Source: an uncultured virus (IMG/VR IMGVR_UViG_3300002026_000101) (Duplodnaviria > Heunggongvirae > Uroviricota > Caudoviricetes). Taken from it: a stretch of 64,000 nt of DNA. Made by a program: the position numbers and the translations under genes. Positions 24,264 through 51,253 of this stretch are shown here, in pieces. Each line of letters opens with the position of its first letter. Positions within the stretch are counted from its first letter, which is position 1. The notes under the pieces were generated by a model, which saw only the letters and a program-made list of their open reading frames with translations, made no database searches and was not told the DNA's origin. The stretch lies in the IMG/VR virus record IMGVR_UViG_3300002026_000101. One strand, written 5' to 3'.

Positions 24264-24644
24264 ATGGCGTTCGAGTTCAAGGACTGCGAGATCAGGCACG
24301 TACCCATTTCGGTACTGCGGCCAGCGGAGTACCTTGAGTTTGGAAATTGGTTTGCGGGGTTCATTGCTGCTGAACGGTTGTCAGCTTCTTTTGTCATAAA
24401 AAGAGGCAGTAAATTTCCAGTGTTAGACATGCAAGTTAGAGGGATCTCAAGATGTAAAAAGTTAATTGAAGTTTTTGGCAAACACAAACTTCGGTCTAAA
24501 AAGCTACGAGACTTCGAGCAATGGAGTAATATCACTTCTACCCTTTCCGAGTTGCCTCGTGGGGATAGAAATGGTGGTGTATACAAAACCATGGTATTAG
24601 AGCTTATAGAAAAATTCAGGAGAGACCGAAGATATGAATGCTGA
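24264..24644 (+). pseudogene. degenerate LAGLIDADG endonuclease fused to the original ParB N-terminus
   Basis: MAFEFKDCEIRHVPISVLRPAEY then NWFAGFIAAE and FGKHKLRSKKLRDFEQW; central part appears deleted; AT-rich. Confidence 0.7.
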
Positions 24645-24693
24645 AATGGTGATAAAAAGAAAAAGTCTGTCAGATTTACATGGTGCGGAGTAC
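24324..24693 (+). mobile_element. LAGLIDADG element bounded by GCGGAGTAC direct repeats, carrying a replacement ParB 5' end
   Basis: GCGGAGTAC (AEY) at 24324-24332 and 24685-24693. Confidence 0.7.
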
Positions 24694-25206
24694 AACCCGC
24701 GTACGATCAGACCCGAGGCGCTAGAGAGTCTTGGGGTCAGCATGTCCCGTTTCGGGATGATGGTTCCTATCGTCTGGAATGAGCGGACGGGCAATGTCGT
24801 TGGTGGTCATCAGCGGCTTAACAGGCTTGTCGAGAGCGGGGAGACGGAGACGGACGTTGTCGTCGTTGACCTAGACCATAACGAGGAGGTCGCGCTGAAC
24901 ATCACCCTGAATAACCCTAAGATCAGGGGCAGGTTCACAAAGGACGTGGTAGAGGCACTGGAGCGGACGAAGGAGTACATGGGGGATGCGTTCGCGGAGA
25001 TCGGGCTGAAAGACCTGCTGGATTTCATGGGTAAGTTGAAGTTCGATGCGCCAGAGCCAAAGTCAAGCAAGCCAGTTGACCACACGGATGATGGTGGGGG
25101 TGAAGGGGGAGGGGCGCAAAAGGTGTTGGTCGTATGTCCACGGTGCAGGGGGAAGTTCACGCTGGAGGGGCGCAAGATAGTCAACGCGGGGGAGGCGGCA
25201 GAATGA
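24634..25206 (+). CDS. ParB/Srx N-terminal-domain protein
   Basis: AEYNPR...SMSRFG...PIVWNERTGNVVGGHQRL; C-terminal CPRC. Confidence 0.85.
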   Translation: MNAEMVIKRKSLSDLHGAEYNPRTIRPEALESLGVSMSRFGMMVPIVWNERTGNVVGGHQRLNRLVESGETETDVVVVDLDHNEEVALNITLNNPKIRGRFTKDVVEALERTKEYMGDAFAEIGLKDLLDFMGKLKFDAPEPKSSKPVDHTDDGGGEGGGAQKVLVVCPRCRGKFTLEGRKIVNAGEAAE

Positions 25207-25754
25207 CCACTTGGGAAATCGTAAAGATGAAACTGGAGGAGTTGAGGCCGTACCGAGGGAATCCACGGGAGATCGCAAAGGACGCGCTTGTGGGGCTGGA
25301 GGAGTCGGTAAAGCGGTTCGGGTACGTGGAGCCGATCATCTGGAACAAGAGAACCAAGCACATCGTTGGGGGGCACCAGCGGTTCGAGGTGCTGCGCAAG
25401 AACGGGGTTGAGGAGGCGTCGGTGGTTGTGGTGGATATGCCACAGGAGGATGAGCTTGCGGCAAACATTACGCTTAACAACCCCGAGGTGGAGGGGGAGT
25501 GGGATTCCACGGCTGGGGATCTTATTGCGTCGGTGGAGCGGGAAACGCCAGACCTTTTCAAGTCTTTACGGATTGACGGGCTTCGGGATAAGCTGGAGGG
25601 GGCAAAGCCGAGGCGGGCGGAGGATTCCTATAAAGACAAGAATAAAGAGATCACGGATACCGACTTGACTGGGAAGGATGATATGGAGTGTCCTTGCTGC
25701 GGGTTCAAGTGGGAGGTTGACGAGAACGATGTCGTATTGTCGGAGGCCGAATGA
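25203..25754 (+). CDS. ParB/Srx N-terminal-domain protein (paralogue)
   Basis: NPREI...SVKRFGYVEPIIWNKRTKHIVGGHQRF; C-terminal CPCCG. Confidence 0.85.
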   Translation: MTTWEIVKMKLEELRPYRGNPREIAKDALVGLEESVKRFGYVEPIIWNKRTKHIVGGHQRFEVLRKNGVEEASVVVVDMPQEDELAANITLNNPEVEGEWDSTAGDLIASVERETPDLFKSLRIDGLRDKLEGAKPRRAEDSYKDKNKEITDTDLTGKDDMECPCCGFKWEVDENDVVLSEAE

Positions 25755-26833
25755 GCGGACATCGTTTCCCGTATAAGTGGCAGAAGACAGATTTGGCGAG
25801 GGTAAAGCCGAACGGACTAAAAGTATTTTCCACGTTTGCTTGTGGCGGCGGGAGCGACTTCGGGTACGAAATGATCGGGTGTGACGTTCTCGGTATAAAC
25901 GAGATCGACAAGGAGATGGTGGCATTCTATAAGGTCAATCATCAAGTAGACCATGTCTTCCACGAGCCGATCCAGACATTCAAACTGCGGGATGACTTGC
26001 CGAAAGATCTGTTCAACTTGGACATATTTTCGGGATCGCCACCCTGTTCCACATTCTCAATGTCGGGGTTTAGAGAGGCGGCATGGGGAAAGGAAAAGAA
26101 GTTCAAAGAGGGGCAGTCCGAGCAGGTGTTGTCAGACTTGTTCTTTGACTATCTTGATGTGGTTGAAAAGCTGCGGCCCAAGGTGGCGATTGCGGAAAAT
26201 GTCAAGGGGATGATTTCAGGCAAGGCGAAAGGATATTGTCGGCTTGTGCTGGACCGATTCAGGGATCTGGGGTATGAGCCTCAGCTTTTTCTGCTGAACG
26301 CTGCATCAATGGGTGTGCCGCAGATGCGGGAGAGGGTGTTTTTCATTGCGAGGCGCAAGGAATTACAGTTAAAGCCTTTGGTTTTGAACTTCGACGAGAA
26401 ACCGATTACATTCGGCGAGGTAGCGGCCTGCCTGCCTTTCCAAGATTTGGATGAAACAAAGATTAGCGATGCGTTTTTGAGATTATGGGAGATGACAAGG
26501 CAAGGAGGGTCATTCTGCGACGTGCTGGAGGCGGCTGGAAGTTCAAGGAAATTATTTAATTCTTATAGGTTATCTGATACGTCTGTTTGTTTCACGTTGA
26601 CGGCGGTCGGTGGGTTGTATCATCCTACGGAGGTGAGGGCTATAAGCTCGCCGGAGGTTTGTTTAATCGGGTCATATCCTTACGACTACGATTTCCTAGG
26701 GGAGAACTTGGCAAAGAAGATTTATGTGATCGGGATGAGTGTTCCCCCTGTGATGATGGCGCAGATTGCAGCGCAGGTCGCGGAGCAGTTTTTCGGGGTA
26801 AGCGGGGATTCAATATCTGAGGCATGGAGGTGA
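25751..26833 (+). CDS. DNA (cytosine-5) methyltransferase
   Basis: FACGGG (I), GSPPC (IV), ENVKG (VI), QMRERVF (VIII), IGMSVPP (X). Confidence 0.92.
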   Translation: MSGHRFPYKWQKTDLARVKPNGLKVFSTFACGGGSDFGYEMIGCDVLGINEIDKEMVAFYKVNHQVDHVFHEPIQTFKLRDDLPKDLFNLDIFSGSPPCSTFSMSGFREAAWGKEKKFKEGQSEQVLSDLFFDYLDVVEKLRPKVAIAENVKGMISGKAKGYCRLVLDRFRDLGYEPQLFLLNAASMGVPQMRERVFFIARRKELQLKPLVLNFDEKPITFGEVAACLPFQDLDETKISDAFLRLWEMTRQGGSFCDVLEAAGSSRKLFNSYRLSDTSVCFTLTAVGGLYHPTEVRAISSPEVCLIGSYPYDYDFLGENLAKKIYVIGMSVPPVMMAQIAAQVAEQFFGVSGDSISEAWR

Positions 26834-27694: not shown

Positions 27695-28105
27695 ATGTCT
27701 GAATTATTTGGAGACGTGCTGGGGCGGTTCAAGGCAAGCGAGGACGCGGAGGATCTAACTCCCCTTATCGACGATGGGGTATTGCGCAATGGCGTGGTGG
27801 CTTGGAAGTCCATCAAGGTATCAATCAATGCTGACCTAGCGCAAAATGGCTGTGATTTTGATGACCGCTCCGAGCGGTGGGAATGGCTGTGGTCTTGCGT
27901 GGCATTTGATCTGGGGCAGTTCGCGGTAGTTGCTGGGGCAAGGGCGCAGGATGCCCGAGACCTGTTTATCAGGTTGAAAGGGCTTCGGCTTATCTATCCC
28001 GACGGGACAATAAATAAACTTGCCAAAGACCTGTTGCAGGCGATAATCATGGAACGTATAAGCAAGGCGATGAAATCCAAAGGCGCGAAGGGAGCTGTGA
28101 AATGA
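27695..28105 (+). CDS. hypothetical protein
   Basis: 136-aa ORF coupled to next gene. Confidence 0.7.
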   Translation: MSELFGDVLGRFKASEDAEDLTPLIDDGVLRNGVVAWKSIKVSINADLAQNGCDFDDRSERWEWLWSCVAFDLGQFAVVAGARAQDARDLFIRLKGLRLIYPDGTINKLAKDLLQAIIMERISKAMKSKGAKGAVK

Positions 28106-29337
28106 TAAGCAAGATGTGGGGGCGTCGCAAGGTTTCGGATTCCGAGTTTGATTCGAGGTTGCGGGTGCTGCGGAGCAAGTTCGAGGGGGAGCGCACGACA
28201 CTGTACCTTGACAATGCCGCGACAACGGCGATTGACCCCGAGGTGGTACAGGCAATGGGGCGGCATAATCTGATGGCGAAGAACGCGTCTGCTGTCCATA
28301 TCAACGGGCTTGACGGGGCAGACTGCGTGTGGGAGGGGATTGAGCGGGTTGCGGAATCAATCGGGGCGGAGGATCGGGATATTTATTTCACGTCTGGCGG
28401 TACGGAATCAAATAACTGGGCGTTGAAGGGTGTGGTGGCTAAGACGGGCAAAGGCGGGCTGGTCATCGGGGCTGGCGAACACCAATCCATCTCCAAGTGC
28501 GCACACTGGATGAATGGGGGTATGGCGGAATTATCTATTGCTGGTTTGTTGCCAGATGGCCGCGTGGATATGGATAGCCTTAAAGGGTGTCTGGAGAACG
28601 GAGCGGTAGGACTGGTCAGCATCCAGCACTCCAACAGCGACACGGGCGTAATAAACGACATCCCAGCGATTTCAGAATTAGTTCACAAGGCGGGGGCTTT
28701 GCTCCATGTCGATGCTGTCCAGTCATGGGGCAAGGTTGAATTAAATGTCGGGAAGCTGGGCGTGGATTTAATGACCTTGTCGGGACACAAGATTCACGGG
28801 CCGCAGGGCATTGGCGTATTGTACATTCGTGACGGGGTGGAGATAGAGCCATTGATTCACGGGGGCGGGCAGCAGCGTGGGAAGCGGGCGGGGACATTGC
28901 CTGTCCAATTGATTGTCGGGCTAGGGGTGGCTGCAGCGCAGGCGCGTGTGGACGTAAAGATGAACATGGACGTGGTGCGGGATAGCCAGTATTTCATGGA
29001 GTGTTTGTTAAGGGATCGGTTCGGGGCTAAGATCGCGGGGGACGGTTCGGACAGGCTGCCTACGATATCGAAGATCATTCTGGGTGGTGATGTCGAGGCG
29101 GATATGGTCTGTGCCTTGCTGTCGCAAGATGGGATCATGGTATCTGTCGGGTCTGCGTGTGATTCAGTTAATTCGGGATCATCGCTGGTTTTGCGTGCGA
29201 TGGGGTATAATGAGGTTGAAGCGAGGAGTGCATTCAGGGTTAGCCTGTGCCGAGGGACGACGCGGCGGGATGTGCTTGGGCTTGTCGATGGCCTTGGTAG
29301 GGCACTAAGGCGGGTAAGGGAACAGGGGTTGATATGA
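28102..29337 (+). CDS. cysteine desulfurase (IscS/NifS/DndA type)
   Basis: YLDNAATT, FTSGGTESNN, HVDAVQ, SGHKIHGPQG (PLP Lys), SVGSAC (catalytic Cys). Confidence 0.92.
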   Translation: MISKMWGRRKVSDSEFDSRLRVLRSKFEGERTTLYLDNAATTAIDPEVVQAMGRHNLMAKNASAVHINGLDGADCVWEGIERVAESIGAEDRDIYFTSGGTESNNWALKGVVAKTGKGGLVIGAGEHQSISKCAHWMNGGMAELSIAGLLPDGRVDMDSLKGCLENGAVGLVSIQHSNSDTGVINDIPAISELVHKAGALLHVDAVQSWGKVELNVGKLGVDLMTLSGHKIHGPQGIGVLYIRDGVEIEPLIHGGGQQRGKRAGTLPVQLIVGLGVAAAQARVDVKMNMDVVRDSQYFMECLLRDRFGAKIAGDGSDRLPTISKIILGGDVEADMVCALLSQDGIMVSVGSACDSVNSGSSLVLRAMGYNEVEARSAFRVSLCRGTTRRDVLGLVDGLGRALRRVREQGLI

Positions 29338-29702
29338 ACAAGCAGGAAAGTGATCGATTGCTTTCGATGGCGGGATTCATTGGCATGGTTGCCGTAGGGT
29401 GGGTAGGATACGTTGTGGCAATAGACGGATGGATGCACGGGGGGGTTGAGTTGTCGAAGTTCATGCTGGTGTACGGGGTCGGTTATTCCCTCGGGGTGAT
29501 CAAGGCAACGGAAAAGATACGGAATCAGGTCGGTGGGTTAATTAAAAGCACATCCGCCTCTATGGGGGTTCGTGTCGCAGCCCGTTTGATTCGTGACCTG
29601 GTCAGGAACAAGGAGCAAGCGGAGGCTGCGGCGGTGGATGCGGAGAAGATCGTGGATGAGGAGGTTCAGGCTCAATTAACCGCCTTGGCTCGTTTAATTT
29701 AA
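29334..29702 (+). CDS. two-transmembrane-segment protein
   Basis: Two hydrophobic stretches followed by a coiled tail. Confidence 0.6.
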   Translation: MNKQESDRLLSMAGFIGMVAVGWVGYVVAIDGWMHGGVELSKFMLVYGVGYSLGVIKATEKIRNQVGGLIKSTSASMGVRVAARLIRDLVRNKEQAEAAAVDAEKIVDEEVQAQLTALARLI

Positions 29703-29745
29703 TGATTGCATATAATTCGCAGATTGTTTAATATGATAATCAGTT

Positions 29746-29845
29746 CAAAGGCGCAGTGGTGGAAGGTAGACACGTTGGGAGCCGTCGCTGCCCAGCCCTG
29801 CTTAACGCAGGATTGCCAAGTGACCAATCTTGGCCTGCGCTTTTG
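29746..29845 (+). ncRNA. tRNA-like RNA (long variable arm, atypical anticodon and T loops)
   Basis: Acceptor GGCGCAG/CTGCGCT; D-arm GTG-GAAGGTAGA-CAC; TTGGG/CCCAG; CCTGC/GCAGG; GCCAAG/CTTGGC. Confidence 0.6.
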
Positions 29846-29902
29846 CTTTTAAGACCGTCGGTACAATTGTGCTGGCGGTCTTTTTGTTTAATCAAGGAGG
29901 AG

Positions 29903-31597
29903 ATGATGGATTTGTTTGGACGCGATTTGTTTGGTGATGAAATAAAACAAAAATCACGAGGCCCAGTTGCTGATCGTTTCCTATTCCCACCATTCAGTGT
30001 GATTGATGCAAAACAGGGTGATTGGCAGGAACGGAAGCGGGCATGGGCGGCGATGGGGATTAAGGGGGAATTAGGAAGGTCTGCCAAGTCTTACAACATC
30101 CATGAATGGATAGAGGACAATCGGGATGAAATGAACATTGCTGGTTCTGTTCATGGGGATGGAACGAGTATATTCGACCCCGTTCTATGTGAGCTTGCAT
30201 ATCGTTGGTTTTGCCCCAAAGGCGGTCAAGTTGTTGATCCGTTTGCTGGCGGTTCTGTTCGTGGCATCGTTGCTGCGGCAATGGGTAGGCGGTATTGGGG
30301 GTGTGACTTGCGGGTGGAACAGGTTGAGGCTAATCGGGCGCAAGCTGATGAAATCCTTGATGGAGCGGCTTTTTGTGCTGATTCAATTACCCCAGTAATG
30401 AGGGTTGGAGAGAACTGGATAAAGAGAGATGATCTTTGTGTTATTCATGGAGCAAGAGGGGGTAAAGCGAGGACGTGTTGGCATTTGGCAAAGGACGCAA
30501 CGGCAGGACTAACAACGGCAGGGAGCAGGGAGTCGCCTCAAGTGCTTCTTGTTGCTACGATGGCCAAAGCACTTGGCTTGCCGTGTGTCGCTCACGTTCC
30601 CGAGGGGGATATAACAACAGGGCCAGTTGCCGATGCTGTAAAACTTGGCGCAACTGTTATTCAACACGAAGCGGGATATAACACGGTAATAGCGGCGATG
30701 GCAAATACATACGGGATGGAACATGGATACACGGTTATTCCATTTGGAATGCAATGTGAGGGGGCCGTGGGGCAGACCCGAAAACAAGCCGTGAATATCC
30801 CTAATGATGTTTGTCGGGTAGTGATCCCAGTGGGAAGCGGGATGTCTTTGTCGGGGCTTTTGTGGGGAATGCTTGATGCTGGGAACGTCAAGCCTGTTAT
30901 TGGAGTGGTTGTTGGTGCCGACCCGTCAAAAAGGCTAGACACATACGCCCCTGCAAACTGGCGGGACATGGTGACTCTTGTCCCCTCGTGTGTTGACTAC
31001 AGCAAGCATGTTGATTTGACAATTGGTGGGGTGAAGCTTGATCCGGTATATGAGGCGAAATGCGGGACGGTTTTGACTGCTGGCGATTTACTTTGGATAG
31101 TAGGGCATCGCGACGCTTACTCCGGAGATCAATTTGCTCCGCAGTGGGTTTGCGGTGATAGCACCGAAATGCTAAGCCATGCCCCTGATGCTGACTTTGT
31201 GTTTTCCTGCCCGCCGTACGGTGATCTTGAAAAGTACAGCGACGATCCTAATGACCTAAGTTGTATGGAATACAACGCGTTCAAGGAGGCATACGGGAGG
31301 ATCATACTGCGGGCTGTTCAGAGATTAAAGCAGGATCGGTTTGCCTGTTTTGTCGTGGGTGACTTTAGGGATAAACGCGGGTTCTATCGCGACTTTGTAA
31401 GTGCAACAATTGAGGCGTTTCGCAATGCGGGGGCTGAACTTTACAATGAGGCAATTCTTTGTACGTCTGTTGGTTCGGCGTGCATGAGGGTTACGAAACA
31501 ATTTAATTCAGGTCGCAAGTTTGCAAAAACACACCAGAACGTACTTGTTTTTTGCAAAGGGGATTGGCGGAAAGCAGCGGGGGTCTGCAATGGGTGA
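29903..31597 (+). CDS. amino-methyltransferase-fold protein with inserted fold-type II PLP enzyme domain
   Basis: AAGGAGG RBS; DPFAGGS (SAM), then KRDDL..GGKAR..VIPVGSGMS..LDPVYEAK (PLP, ~30386-31105), then FSCPPY. Confidence 0.85.
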   Translation: MMDLFGRDLFGDEIKQKSRGPVADRFLFPPFSVIDAKQGDWQERKRAWAAMGIKGELGRSAKSYNIHEWIEDNRDEMNIAGSVHGDGTSIFDPVLCELAYRWFCPKGGQVVDPFAGGSVRGIVAAAMGRRYWGCDLRVEQVEANRAQADEILDGAAFCADSITPVMRVGENWIKRDDLCVIHGARGGKARTCWHLAKDATAGLTTAGSRESPQVLLVATMAKALGLPCVAHVPEGDITTGPVADAVKLGATVIQHEAGYNTVIAAMANTYGMEHGYTVIPFGMQCEGAVGQTRKQAVNIPNDVCRVVIPVGSGMSLSGLLWGMLDAGNVKPVIGVVVGADPSKRLDTYAPANWRDMVTLVPSCVDYSKHVDLTIGGVKLDPVYEAKCGTVLTAGDLLWIVGHRDAYSGDQFAPQWVCGDSTEMLSHAPDADFVFSCPPYGDLEKYSDDPNDLSCMEYNAFKEAYGRIILRAVQRLKQDRFACFVVGDFRDKRGFYRDFVSATIEAFRNAGAELYNEAILCTSVGSACMRVTKQFNSGRKFAKTHQNVLVFCKGDWRKAAGVCNG

Positions 31598-31995
31598 TGA
31601 TCAGCTTACAGCATTCGCGTCAACAGATAAATGGACTGTCTACAACGGTGACTGCTTAGACGTGATGCGTAAAATGCCAGACAACAGCGTGGACTCCATT
31701 GTCACAGACCCGCCGTATGGGCTGGGTACACCGCCCGACCCAGTGGAGGTGATGAAGGCGTGGTGTGAGACGGGATTCCACGAGGTTAAAAGTACCAAGG
31801 GCTTCATGGGGGTTCAGGTTTGTGGGGATAGAGCAGAGCGAGGAGTACTGCGAGATCGGTGTTTGCAGGATTGGTCATGCGGAATCGAAAACGGATGGCG
31901 TAGTGGTTGGCAAGCAGACAAAGGCTGCAAAGGTAAAAGATACAGTCGTACAGGATAAGAAGGCGATAGCCAAGGTGCAGTTAGAATTGTTTTGA
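31590..31995 (+). pseudogene. N4/N6 DNA methyltransferase with internal deletion and frameshift
   Basis: GDCLDVM...VTDPPYG joined out of frame near 31810 to GFRFVGIEQSEEYCEI; SAM-binding motif missing. Confidence 0.8.
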
Positions 31996-38642: not shown

Positions 38643-38652
38643 ACGGGGGACG

Positions 38653-41235
38653 ATGAATGAGGACGAGTTAGATTTCATCGGGGGCGGGGCAACGCAGCAA
38701 GAGCTGGTGTTTGTCACGCCTCCGACGGTTAAAGCGACGGGGCTTGACCTCATGGCTGCGTTGAAAGTCATGGGGCATTCGTCTTTCAGGCACGGTCAGG
38801 AGGACATTGTGCGGGCCGTTGTGAAAGATGGCAGTCGGGTGCTTGCGGTTTGCCCGACTTCATTCGGTAAAAGCCTGCTATACCAACTTCCCGCCATTGT
38901 ATGCAATGGACTTGCGATCATCGTCAGTCCTTTGATCTCCCTGATGAAAGATCAGGTTGACAAGCTGAAGGAGTGCGGGGTGTCGGCGGAGCTTATCAAT
39001 TCGTCCTTGACCAAGGTGGAGATGAGGGAGGTCATGGTCAAGCTGGCGATGAACAGGGTAAAGATCGCTTATGTTGCGCCCGAGCGGTTCTCGAACGACG
39101 AGTTTGTGAACGTGATGAAAAGGACAAATGTAGGGCTTTTTGCAATAGATGAATGTCACTGTATATCCAAATACGGCAATGACTTCAGACCTGCTTACAA
39201 GCGGCTAGACGAGGTTATCCGAATGCTAAAGCCTGATCGGGTTGTCGCGTTGACGGCAACAGCGACGCGGGAGGTTCGGAATGATATTCTGGACAGCCTC
39301 AGTATGCCGCAGGCGGAGATGTTCGTTCGGGGCGTGTATCGGCCTAACCTTTGCTTGGCTGCGATGCGTACCCCCAATTCGATGAGGATCAACGCGATGC
39401 TACGGGAGATCAGGAGGCAGCGGGAAGCGGGAAACAACACGGGGATTGTGTATGCCCCGACACGGGATTTGACGGAGAAGCTGGCAAGGGTGTTTAACGG
39501 GATAGCCTATCACGGAGGGATGAAAGATAAGGATCGCACCGAGGCGCAGGACAAGTGGTCATCAGAGGGCGGGTTGGTCGTGGCGACCTGTGCTTTCGGT
39601 ATGGGGATAGATCGGGCTCAACCAGTAACTTCTATGGTGTTGACTCCTGATGGATTTCATTCTATGGGATCAATAAAAGTTGGCGAATATGTTATTGGCG
39701 CAAATGGGAAACCGACAAAAATAATCAAAATACATGAAAGGGGTGTCCTGCCTTCGTATGAGGTAGTTTTTAGTGATGGGTCTAAGACGGAGTGTGCAGA
39801 AGAACATATCTGGAGTGTAAGGTCCGCCAAGGACAAATATCGAGATAAACAATTTAGGCAGATTCGGATGGGAGATATTAAGAAAACGGGTCTTAAAGAC
39901 AAGCATGGTAATAGTCTGTATTTTATCCCAATGACTGAAGCCGTGCAATACTCTGGTGTCGTAAAACTACCAATTCATCCGTATCTTTTAGGCGCACTAA
40001 TTGGGGATGGTTCTTTTGGCAAAGATTGTGTGCGATTTACGAATGCAAATGAAGAAATGGTGAAAATACTCGGCGACTTACTCCCGGATGGATTGTGTTT
40101 TAGAGAAAGAAAAACCTATGATGTGAATAGGAAGTCAAAAGCATATGGAATTGTTAAGGTATCTTCTAAATGTAATGATAGAAGCAACAAAATACTAAAA
40201 GAGATTAGGGACTTGGGATTGTCTGGGTGTACCGCTACTATAAAGTTCATACCAGATATCTACATGAAGGCAAGTATAGAACAAAGAATTGAACTGCTAA
40301 GAGGGCTATTTGACACGGATGGTAGCGCAAGGGGTGGCTGTGTTAATGTGGTTTCGTATGTAACTGTCTCCGATAGATTAAAAGATGGGGTTGTTAACCT
40401 CGTGCAATCTATTGGAGGAGTAGCTACCGCAATTAAGATAGATAGAAAAAAAGAGAACTGGAATGACATTTGGAGAGTGCAGGCAAAATTTCCTTCCAAT
40501 ATCATTCCATTTAAGGTAAAAGAAAAAATTGATGTTTTCTCGCCTCCAAAAAAATATCTCCCCAATAGATCAATTTCTTCTATTGAGTATGTTGGGGACA
40601 AAGAAATGAGATGTATTACGGTTGACAGTGATGATGGCCTGTATCTTACTGACAATTTTATCGTTACTCATAATTGTGACGTTCGGTTCGTGTATCACTG
40701 GGGGTTCAGTCCGAGCGTGGAAGATTGGTATCAGGAGTGCGGGAGAGCGGGCAGGGACGGCAAGGACGCCGATTGCTGTTCGTTCTGGGACTATGGCGAT
40801 TTGAGTATTCAGGAGCTGCTTATCAACAACTCGACCGCCTCCTCGCACGAGGCAGCGGCATTTGCTAAGTGGGTGTACAAGTTCTCGAAAGACAACGCTA
40901 GGGCGAATGCCAAGACGGTACAGTTAAACATGACACAGGCCGACATGGGCGGGCTTGCCTTCGTACAGGGCGTAGGGGCTTGCGTGGCGTTCCTTAGACG
41001 TCACGGGCTGATGGAGACGCTGGGGCGGGGCAAGTATCGCGTGACGCTTGAAGCGGACTGGAATCTTGACTTTTCAGACTTGGACAAGCATCGGGAGCGC
41101 AAGCTGTCGCGGCTGAAGGAGGTGATGGGGTTTTATCAGGATCGGGAGGAGTGTAGGTTCGTGAATGTGTGCGCTTACTTCGGCGACCTGTCGATGAACG
41201 GGGCGTGTGGCAAGTGCGATGTGTGTAGGAGCTAG
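38653..41235 (+). CDS. recQ: RecQ-like helicase containing an intein
   Basis: FRHGQ, PTSFGKSLLYQ, DECHCIS, LTATA, AFGMGID, QECGRAGRDG, C-terminal CGKCDVC. Confidence 0.92.
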   Translation: MNEDELDFIGGGATQQELVFVTPPTVKATGLDLMAALKVMGHSSFRHGQEDIVRAVVKDGSRVLAVCPTSFGKSLLYQLPAIVCNGLAIIVSPLISLMKDQVDKLKECGVSAELINSSLTKVEMREVMVKLAMNRVKIAYVAPERFSNDEFVNVMKRTNVGLFAIDECHCISKYGNDFRPAYKRLDEVIRMLKPDRVVALTATATREVRNDILDSLSMPQAEMFVRGVYRPNLCLAAMRTPNSMRINAMLREIRRQREAGNNTGIVYAPTRDLTEKLARVFNGIAYHGGMKDKDRTEAQDKWSSEGGLVVATCAFGMGIDRAQPVTSMVLTPDGFHSMGSIKVGEYVIGANGKPTKIIKIHERGVLPSYEVVFSDGSKTECAEEHIWSVRSAKDKYRDKQFRQIRMGDIKKTGLKDKHGNSLYFIPMTEAVQYSGVVKLPIHPYLLGALIGDGSFGKDCVRFTNANEEMVKILGDLLPDGLCFRERKTYDVNRKSKAYGIVKVSSKCNDRSNKILKEIRDLGLSGCTATIKFIPDIYMKASIEQRIELLRGLFDTDGSARGGCVNVVSYVTVSDRLKDGVVNLVQSIGGVATAIKIDRKKENWNDIWRVQAKFPSNIIPFKVKEKIDVFSPPKKYLPNRSISSIEYVGDKEMRCITVDSDDGLYLTDNFIVTHNCDVRFVYHWGFSPSVEDWYQECGRAGRDGKDADCCSFWDYGDLSIQELLINNSTASSHEAAAFAKWVYKFSKDNARANAKTVQLNMTQADMGGLAFVQGVGACVAFLRRHGLMETLGRGKYRVTLEADWNLDFSDLDKHRERKLSRLKEVMGFYQDREECRFVNVCAYFGDLSMNGACGKCDVCRS
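39616..40674 (+). mobile_element. class 3 intein with LAGLIDADG endonuclease (353 aa)
   Basis: Starts with Ala (AQPV); EHIW, MRCITV, IVTHN/C give the W-C-T triplet; LGALIGDG and LRGLFDTDG blocks; AT-rich. Confidence 0.9.
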
Positions 41236-49353: not shown

Positions 49354-49993
49354 TTAGATCAGTAGAGGCAAAGTGAGACTTCGGGATAGGAAAAGGATTT
49401 TTGACAAGTGGGTTCGCGGGGAGTCGATCTGCGATCTTGCGTACCGGAAGGTGTTTGACAAGTTGCCGTCGGATCAATCCGTCTGGTGTATTGAGGCGAT
49501 TGTCAGGGGGGGGGGGGNNNNNNNNNNNNNNNNNNNNNNNNNNNNNNNNNGGGGGGGGGGGGGGGGGGGGGGGCGGAGGGAGCGGGGGGAAACCCCGAAT
49601 ATGGGAAAGCCATTCAAGGTGACGCTTAGGGAGAGGACGGGAAGGAGATGATCATGGAGTTTGCGGTTGGAGTTATTTGCGGGGTGGCGTTGTCATTTTT
49701 GGCGGGTCTGCTTTTGTCTGTCTGGGCGTTTGACGATAAGGGGAGGGGGTTTAATCCAGACGATGGCTGCTGAATTAAATAGGGTTCAATTAAGAACAAG
49801 GAGACGAAATGAAGTATATCGTGGTGACAGCATCGAGTGATGGGGAATTGGAACAGAAGGTTGCCGCCAAGCTGGGGGATGGGTGTCAGCTTGTGGGAGG
49901 GGTTTCGGTGGTGTGGGTGCCGGGGGCGGGCGAGACGTGGGCTCAGGCAATGGTCTTGTGGCATCAGGAGTAATTAGATAGGAGGTGGAGATC

Positions 49994-51253
49994 ATGGAGT
50001 TTGTGGCATTTCCTAAAATCGCGAGGTTCAGCAGGGAAGTTATCGTAACGGAGAAAATTGATGGGACAAATGGTCAGATAGCGATAAACGAGGCGGGGGA
50101 GTTTCGGGTCGGGAGTCGGGAGAGGTGGATAACCCCGGAGGATGATAACCACGGGTTCGCTGCTTGGGCATACGCCCACAAGGATGAACTGATGGGGCTG
50201 GGGGTAGGCAGGCACGCGGGGGAATGGTGGGGATGTCTTACCCGTGAAACCTCGGTAAGACTCGCGGATGGCAGTCTTGAGAAAATAGGAAAGATTGTGA
50301 ACAACAAACTTGAAGTCGAAGTTATGTCGTATAATTTTGCAACAGGCGTGATAGAGCCAAAGCGGGTTGTTGGATATAAAGTCGCAGAAAAAACCGACGA
50401 TTGGCTGACTATCGAGTTTAAGAGGAAACATAAAGGTGGAAATCAGCCACATCTAAATGTGACTCCGAATCATATTCTATACACTAAAGACGATAGCGGT
50501 CTCATAAAAGAAATATCTGCTGGCGAATTAAAAGTCGGAGACCGAGTTTTTCTGGCTGGGAAAAGAATAACAGAATTGCAAAAGCAACTCCCGTTTGGAT
50601 CAAACGTCGGAGACGGGAGTACCGGGGGTTACAGCTTTCACGTCGGGCACTCCAATCACGATCTGGTTGATGAAGAAATATCCGTATTAGGTGGTCTTAT
50701 ATCAAACGTTCGGTTTCAAACCATTTGGGAATCCCCTCATGCTTCAAATGCTTGTACAATGCAATTGATCGAGACCGAGGTCACGGCTATTACCCGTGAT
50801 TATGCGAATGCGAATCGGTGTAAAAACCGCTACGACATAGAGGTGGAAGACAATCACAACTTTTTTGCAAATGGTGTTCTTGTCCATAATTCGGGGATCC
50901 AGAGGAAGTACGGGCTGGTGAACGAGGACAAGCGATTCAGCCTGTTCAACGTGCAACGCTGGTGCTTGCAGGGGCAGGAGCCGGAGCAGATACAGACGGA
51001 AGACCCACGGGGGGGCAAGATGCAGGAGGTGCTGCCAGCGTGCGTAGGGCTGGTTCCCGTGCTGTGGCGGGGCAAGTTCGATGATCTTGACATACCAGCA
51101 ATCATGGACGGGCTGCGGGAGAACGGGAGCGGTGCGGTCAAGGGCTTTCAACGCCCAGAGGGGATTGTGATCTACCATGTCGCAGGGAACGTGGGCTTTA
51201 AGAAAACATTAGGGAATGATGACATTCCGAAGTCAAGGGTGCGTGGCGTATAA
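49994..51253 (+). CDS. RNA ligase (Rnl2-like nucleotidyltransferase) containing an intein
   Basis: TEKIDGTN (motif I), GSR, GEWWG/SGIQR, PEGIVI. Confidence 0.85.
   Translation: MEFVAFPKIARFSREVIVTEKIDGTNGQIAINEAGEFRVGSRERWITPEDDNHGFAAWAYAHKDELMGLGVGRHAGEWWGCLTRETSVRLADGSLEKIGKIVNNKLEVEVMSYNFATGVIEPKRVVGYKVAEKTDDWLTIEFKRKHKGGNQPHLNVTPNHILYTKDDSGLIKEISAGELKVGDRVFLAGKRITELQKQLPFGSNVGDGSTGGYSFHVGHSNHDLVDEEISVLGGLISNVRFQTIWESPHASNACTMQLIETEVTAITRDYANANRCKNRYDIEVEDNHNFFANGVLVHNSGIQRKYGLVNEDKRFSLFNVQRWCLQGQEPEQIQTEDPRGGKMQEVLPACVGLVPVLWRGKFDDLDIPAIMDGLRENGSGAVKGFQRPEGIVIYHVAGNVGFKKTLGNDDIPKSRVRGV
50234..50890 (+). mobile_element. intein (219 aa) with degenerate endonuclease
   Basis: CLTRET start, VTPNH block B, YDIEVEDNHNFFANGVLVHN/S end; remnant GSNVGDGS. 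Confidence 0.9.

Follow-up and report, generated by a model that had tools for sequence, protein, structure and literature searches.

The stretch of DNA analysed here (the window; 64,000 nucleotides from an uncultured virus) reads like a large phage fragment, judging by its strand-biased genes, ParB genes, several methyltransferases, RuvC, RNA ligase and RecQ-like helicase. On its plus strand, at 29903..31597, lies a single ORF of 564 residues, directly preceded by the ribosome-binding site AAGGAGGAG. The encoded protein is a fusion, in the order transferase N-terminal half, PLP domain, transferase C-terminal half. The N-terminal half of the SAM-dependent transferase (29903..30361, +) contains a motif X-like SIFDP, motif I and the motif II CDLR. 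Motif I, DPFAGGSVRG (30236..30265, +), begins with DPFAGGS at residue 112 (nt 30236) and includes Gly117 and Arg120, which are Asp and Phe in a sister clade linked to the SAM decarboxylase SpeD. The inserted PLP domain, of fold type II, spans 245 residues (159-403; 30377..31111, +), with the motifs KRDD (from residue 174), GGKAR (186), PVGSGMS (309) and LDPVYEAK (379); its Schiff-base lysine, Lys188, lies at nt 30464-30466. The C-terminal half (31136..31594, +) contains motif III GDS and then motif IV CPPY (nt 31208-31219, within SCPPY starting at residue 435, nt 31205), and has the conserved basic residues R489, R529, K539, K542, H544 and K552. The insertion thus falls between motifs II and III of the amino-methyltransferase fold, in the loop before strand 3.

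Pfam recognizes PALP (PF00291) at residues 172-342 (E 2e-10; 40.9 bits, above the cut-off of 35) and N6_N4_Mtase at residues 102-143 (E 4.7e-9). By Pfam, the N-terminal half lacks the ParB domain that many relatives carry. In an AlphaFold2 model of the fusion protein (pLDDT 88.7, pTM 0.76), residues 157-405 form a complete fold-type II PLP domain, matched by the ACC-deaminase homologue 1j0a (Z 23.4, rmsd 2.7, 246 aligned). Taken jointly (27-553), both flanks fit the Rossmann fold of TrmN (Z 18.4, rmsd 2.0, 178 aligned), indicating that the transferase halves reassemble into one class I Rossmann fold bearing motif I and the xPPY of motif IV on either side of the insert in sequence. The original prediction, made from the sequence alone, had read the ORF as a SAM-binding half, a fold-type II PLP insert and a catalytic half, and had suggested structure prediction of both domains; the ORF, its motifs, Pfam and the model all agree with that reading. 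The prediction had also noted no intein termini around the insert. Consistent with this, the fusion protein has no Hint or intein Pfam family in a scan that detected an intein in another gene of the window, and an intein was rejected as the origin of the insert, which is a full PLP fold.

Upstream of the fusion gene, 29750..29890 (+) can be folded into a cloverleaf-like RNA whose variable arm is long; behind it comes a 14-bp terminator-like hairpin, the end of which lies about 13 nt before the fusion start codon. The folding z-score of 29700-29905 is -5.35. The element at 29750-29890 has no Rfam or ARAGORN match and was seen elsewhere only in the identical contig L367; it may be a tRNA that has degenerated or a regulatory element. 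An IscS/NifS-like cysteine desulfurase gene (28102-29337, +) lies just upstream of the fusion gene, and cysteine desulfurase is absent from the frequent neighbour clusters of relatives. Downstream, a remnant of a beta-class DNA methyltransferase (31590-31995, +) overlaps the fusion stop codon; it retains DPPY, has lost motif I and contains a frameshift.

Distribution of the PLP-transferase pairing

The best 120 of 6857 homologue matches gave 121 proteins, namely the query, its database entry and 119 further ones. The PLP insertion is present in 115 of the 121, and in the remaining 6 the PLP domain is C-terminal; among the 119 best non-self homologues the numbers are 113 and 6. The fear that the fusion might be unique to one assembly is ruled out by these homologues and by the recurrence of the protein itself. 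An assembly artefact was rejected, since the identical protein occurs on four contigs and a second assembly (L368) covers residues 233-564 at 100%.

Viral loci seeded with the PLP domain (31, of which eight, L002-L009, are near-copies) all contain a transferase of the same family, as one ORF in 22 and as separate genes in 9. Among cultured phages, the PLP domain is inserted in Pam4 and R6L/ZS04, and is encoded by a separate, adjacent gene in Vincenzo and Mae-JY30; P2559S and ZRG1 have SpeD, and phiFL3A and HCTV-2 have a solo transferase. The search for the same fusion and its gene neighbours, proposed with the original prediction, therefore revealed a pairing that recurs widely, in three layouts, beside a sister clade paired with SpeD. 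When loci were seeded with un-inserted transferases (159 loci, from the best 80 of 585 viral and the best 80 of 335 genome matches), a PLP gene was found in only 12 and in none of the other 147, many of the loci being short. A whole-record search with PF00291 recovered all four known positives and found no match in 21 Arg-type solo viral contigs (14 of them at least 90% complete), 15 Asp-clade contigs and 9 other cultured phages. PLP loci always have the transferase and transferase loci mostly lack PLP, indicating that the PLP enzyme depends on the transferase and not the reverse. This would be expected of a tailoring enzyme, with the PLP step accessory.

PLP-linked members of the transferase tree are interspersed with solo ones. 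A single clade for all PLP inserts is rejected (AU p 1.7e-5, on a tree of 40 selected rows), and the transferase is served by two PLP subclades, the ZS04 insert belonging to the second. Repeated insertion, replacement or fission may account for this non-monophyly.

Relatives of the PLP domain

The best PHROG of the PLP domain is phrog_3650 (E 6e-27), the family of ViI gp226 (gp226 itself scores 2.5e-241), and the second is phrog_7093 (E 5e-13), the family of M6 gp52. A profile built from the 121 PLP domains matches gp226 (4e-14) and gp52 (5e-10) at Z=1000; in the PLP tree both proteins attach by long-branch joins. The motifs SPQ, GYN, PFG, PVGSG, YEAK and WIVG are largely common to the PLP domain and ViI gp226, as are a Q-V/A-x-N-I-P stretch and YExK. 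Lys188 aligns with the lysine of D-cysteine desulfhydrase, and K188, G311 and S312 are invariant in 64 sequences. Sequence matches to D-cysteine desulfhydrase are weak (best E 0.011), and its substrate loop reads SNH versus SPQ here. No ACC deaminase or D-cysteine desulfhydrase equivalog is matched, the best NCBIfam score being 26.5 bits against a cut-off of 289, and the SN[HQ] loop is absent. By these comparisons the nearest kin of the PLP domain appear to be ViI gp226 and M6 gp52, decarboxylases that act on DNA, and metabolic enzymes stand further off. According to the available text of PMC8989533, gp226 and gp52, which share PLP subfamilies with the window protein, remove CO2 from serine or glycine carried on thymine in DNA, acting or being proposed to act on a base-tethered amino acid.

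The closest folds, as distinct from the closest sequences, are ACC deaminase and D-cysteine desulfhydrase. They would suit a scheme in which the transferase places an aminocarboxypropyl (ACP) group on DNA and the PLP domain then performs an ACC-deaminase-like elimination or deamination, leaving a keto-acid handle without decarboxylation. This scheme is highly unlikely, given that the substrate loop SPQ resembles that of gp226 and not the desulfhydrase SNH, and that the parallel with SpeD indicates loss of CO2. Decarboxylation of a DNA-bound amino acid is the preferred role of the PLP domain.

In ViI and M6, thymidine hypermodification employs an amino-acid:DNA transferase (PF18724). This family was recovered from both controls, M6 and ViI, but is missing from all 29 PLP-plus-transferase records (13 complete or at least 90% complete) and from 67 scanned proteins, 66 of them ORFs of the window. 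The amino-acid donor of the PLP-plus-transferase records must therefore be another, and the 5-hmU pathway was rejected as the source of the PLP substrate in the relatives. Here the PLP domain is partnered by a SAM-fold enzyme, in many cases within one polypeptide.

Vincenzo retains a gene for P-loop kinase 3 nearby. In phage Alsa_1 (L035:4915-7675), a member of this PLP family is encoded four genes away from a methyltransferase that is more distant and keeps Arg at the equivalent motif I position (CCGWGMR). The 171-residue gp52 of phage phiCTP1 (L045:4875-5387) was considered as a PALP protein and rejected, having PALP-like short motifs by eye and no profile match; its gene adjoins a transferase with the variant motif I FGGEQTK.

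The SpeD-linked clade and the motif I pocket

In phages ZRG1 and P2559S, an un-inserted transferase gene overlaps a SAM decarboxylase gene. The P2559S enzyme is a bona fide SAM decarboxylase in the available portion of PMC9992855; the gene tested there is taken to be the P2559S SpeD because the genome has a single SpeD gene. Among the best 80 of 274 SpeD-seeded loci, the transferase lies directly upstream of SpeD in 78 and a PLP gene in none. In the reciprocal direction, SpeD is adjacent in 73 of the best 80 of 560 loci seeded with the Asp-type transferase (70 by strict distance and 3 with long ORF overlaps); one of the remaining loci is cut at the contig end, six lack SpeD, and again none of the 80 has a PLP gene. 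SpeD is present in 41 of 47 cores not already in the SpeD-seeded set. The SpeD profile was built on 83 sequences and gave the same counts in L001-L206 as a weak two-sequence profile; the seed sequence was itself drawn from the SpeD/Asp clade. Seeding with the ZRG1-type SpeD gave three loci, only one of them with the transferase, indicating that not every phage SpeD is linked to it. SpeD was not found in 39 records, comprising 3 PLP phages and 36 others, six of which are SpeD-less Asp-clade members. PLP and SpeD are mutually exclusive partners of the transferase. The SpeD/Asp link forms a single clade on the transferase tree (support 0.90) and, being confined to one branch, counts as one event.

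The partner of the transferase is mirrored in its motif I. After dereplication at 90% there were 38 PLP-linked, 30 SpeD-linked and 125 solo cores. All 38 PLP-linked cores have Gly117 and Arg120, with the motif I DPFAGGSVRG, whereas the SpeD-linked cores have Asp at position 117 (30/30) and Phe at position 120 (29/30). GGSVR becomes GD[ST]VF in the SpeD-linked clade with the C-terminal basic residues unchanged and CPPY invariant in all three groups. Motif I played no part in selecting the PLP-seeded and SpeD-seeded sets; the near-constant Gly117 of the solo enzymes is circular, the search pattern having contained Gly117, and was not used. Four SpeD-less members of the Asp clade still keep Asp, and two others, L327 and L333, lack both SpeD and Asp.

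In the available text of PMC1282579 and PMC3725402, a mid-motif-I Asp (Asp101/103) lets spermidine synthase exclude the carboxylate of SAM, the position +3 from it is a carboxyl-binding Thr in SAM-using putrescine N-methyltransferase (PMT), and D103I plus V106T converts spermidine synthase to a SAM-using methyltransferase whose Thr binds the carboxylate. By motif register, rather than a ligand-bound structure, positions 117 and 120 would be these two donor-setting sites, and both switch here. Spermidine synthase itself belongs to an unrelated family, PF01564, with a small-molecule acceptor, and that family was found in none of 34 records, P2559S included. With Asp and Phe at the putative donor-setting sites, the SpeD clade seems adapted to decarboxylated SAM, and with Gly and Arg the window enzyme seems adapted to intact SAM; the motif I Asp of aminopropyltransferases that use decarboxylated SAM is absent from the window protein and occurs only in the SpeD-linked sister clade. 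The group usually donated by decarboxylated SAM is aminopropyl.

The exclusivity of PLP and SpeD could also be explained if the PLP domain were itself a SAM decarboxylase supplying its own transferase, which would give the same aminopropyl-DNA in the reverse order. An insert beside the SAM pocket would suit channelling, and the available text of PMC10491745 leaves an analogous route b possible even for the microcin C enzymes MccD/MccE. This order nevertheless seems quite improbable, as the PLP-linked cores have Gly117 and Arg120 without exception and never the Asp/Phe pocket of the SpeD clade, and as the characterised PLP relatives work on DNA-bound amino acids in what is available of PMC8989533. 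Use of intact SAM by the Arg-type transferase is preferred.

Intact SAM is also the donor of ordinary methyltransferases. An Arg that binds the SAM carboxylate would suit methyl transfer equally well, PMT being a methyltransferase. It is conceivable that the Arg-type enzyme is nothing more than an orphan m6A/m4C methyltransferase of the usual kind, that the PLP domain is a passenger or acts on another substrate, and that the chemistry changed only in the SpeD clade. The solved sequences nearest to the window transferase are DNA N4/N6 methyltransferases, the large majority of transferase-seeded loci lack a PLP gene, and an unrelated CxxCxxCC domain is found in the insertion loop as well. However, a methyl group offers a PLP enzyme no substrate, Lys188 is invariant, and every PLP locus has the transferase, in three layouts and with two PLP subclades. 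The motifs are also atypical. Solved DNA methyltransferases read T/S-G-T-T/A at positions 117-120, and the nearest of them FAG[ST]GT and [SD]PPY; the window family departs from the canonical FxGxG and [DNS]PP[YF], with FAGGSVR (FAGGS, not FAGSG) and CPPY. On balance plain methylation is unlikely. The original prediction had proposed transfer of a non-methyl group from SAM followed by PLP chemistry. The kinship with gp226 and gp52, the wide recurrence, and the replacement of PLP by SpeD in a clade with a retuned pocket all strengthen the proposed partnership, while its chemistry is still conjectural beside plain methylation by Arg-type enzymes.

The acceptor

A ParB domain is fused to 21 of 21 SpeD-linked, 12 of 16 PLP-inserted and 46 of 82 Arg-type solo representatives, and the commonest neighbour of the transferase family is terminase. 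The window has two stand-alone ParB_N genes (24634..25754, +) about 4 kb upstream of the fusion gene; given the ParB fusions of relatives, it is possible that they are partners in trans of the fusion enzyme. Together, the ParB fusions, the kinship with DNA N4/N6 methyltransferases, the linkage to terminase and the relatives of the PLP domain point to DNA as the likely acceptor. The best structural matches of the window transferase are tRNA m2G methyltransferases, with MccD at rank 44 (Z 14.7), and generic methyltransferases rank above every known ACP transferase in the fold searches, a ranking too weak to exclude ACP transfer.

The same fold matches would suit a tRNA as acceptor, and a protein has to be considered along with it. 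The terminase neighbourhood would likewise suit a packaging polyamine (carboxyspermidine-like, or spermidine in the SpeD clade), and phage SpeDs are interpreted as polyamine enzymes in the available text of PMC9992855. An acceptor other than DNA is nonetheless rather unlikely. The ParB fusions argue against it, as do the invariant PPY motif, which is of the base-stacking kind, the basic C-terminal residues, and the frequent neighbour clusters, in which inspection by eye recognised no putrescine-pathway gene. The PLP relatives, as far as the available text of PMC8989533 goes, act on DNA. DNA is therefore retained as the acceptor in what follows.

Proposed mechanism

ACP groups are known on tRNA and rRNA. 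It is proposed that the Arg-type transferase would move an ACP group from SAM onto a DNA base. The PLP domain, by analogy with its family, would then bind the ACP on DNA through its free alpha-amine as a Schiff base and remove CO2, leaving a cationic 3-aminopropyl base. In the SpeD relatives, an Asp-type transferase using decarboxylated SAM would reach the same aminopropyl end group, and in relatives without any decarboxylase the end product would be ACP. The modification might serve as anti-restriction armour, in charge neutralisation during packaging, or in both. Transfer of ACP followed by PLP decarboxylation is the simplest common account if one branch uses decarboxylated SAM and the other recruits decarboxylases of DNA-bound amino acids. 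The probability that both steps occur in this way in one chain is put at roughly 50%, and aminopropyl-DNA made by any route is somewhat favoured.

The nearest chemical precedent is microcin C, where, in the available text of PMC10491745, ACP transfer by the methyltransferase-fold MccD is followed by PLP decarboxylation to aminopropyl by the MccE N-terminal domain. The acceptor there is a peptide-nucleotide phosphate, and MccD is only a generic fold match to the window transferase. A second parallel is CmoX of phage S-B43, which, as presented in the available part of PMC12783734, has a DNA-methyltransferase fold, a non-methyl SAM donor, an active-site Arg that recognises this donor and a product that serves as a handle for tailoring. 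CmoX differs in belonging to the C5-cytosine family, in using carboxy-SAM as donor and in having a ligase as second step. The closest relatives of the window transferase by sequence are the phage amino-methyltransferases of ParB-terminase loci, phrog_12517 (E 2e-97) and phrog_498 (E 4e-77) (PF01555; available text of PMC4738411). They share the ParB fusion and terminase linkage, and their methyltransferase label is by prediction only. The atypical motifs I and IV and the decarboxylase partners argue for non-methyl group transfer in this family.

The literature consulted holds no account of a PLP-transferase fusion or of ACP or aminopropyl transfer to DNA; its coverage is thin for subscription papers, and the 2013 Iyer survey may bear on the point. 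A polyamine aminopropyltransferase in one TET contig is offered as speculation in the available text of PMC8256090. The fusion enzyme is real, widespread and uncharacterised, a putative variant of phage DNA hypermodification. If the proposed mechanism is true, it gives phages a new way of making DNA cationic after replication, calls for re-annotation of a large family of presumed methyltransferases, and explains the presence of SAM decarboxylase without spermidine synthase in some phages. The enzyme would also be a one-gene tool to amine-label DNA from natural SAM.

A further domain, with a CxxCxxCC motif (PF03692-like), sits in the loop that takes the PLP insert, either by itself or after the PLP domain (L372:118-645, L391:626-1138, P0064, P0100, P0115, L010 and L017), and also as an adjacent gene or fusion (L020, L022, L024, L045:3382-3990, L176 and L306, the last with an Asp-type enzyme). 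It has only a faint match to FliB (E 0.026) and is a candidate for a third tailoring step. It is tentatively suggested, at somewhat less than even odds, that phrog_498/12517 in its entirety, a family with hundreds of genes in phages and prophages that are annotated as DNA methyltransferases, consists of SAM-dependent DNA aminoalkyltransferases. Arg-type members would transfer ACP for trimming by the two PLP subclades, Asp-type members would work with SpeD through a convergent spermidine-synthase pocket, and the CxxCxxCC domain would tailor the amine further. If true, this would be DNA modification chemistry of a new class and provide a natural enzyme for placing amine handles on DNA.

Other features of the window

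Directly behind the two ParB genes lies a C5-methyltransferase gene (25751-26833, +) with an SPPC motif and an unusual GMS motif X. The layout resembles that of CmoX loci, but the CmoX arginine is not evident by eye. Further downstream in the window are a RecQ-like helicase gene with a LAGLIDADG-bearing insert (38650-41235, +) and an RNA ligase gene with an intein (49985-51250, +). CCGG is strongly depleted across the whole window (observed/expected 0.16), followed by GGCC, GCGC and CGCG.
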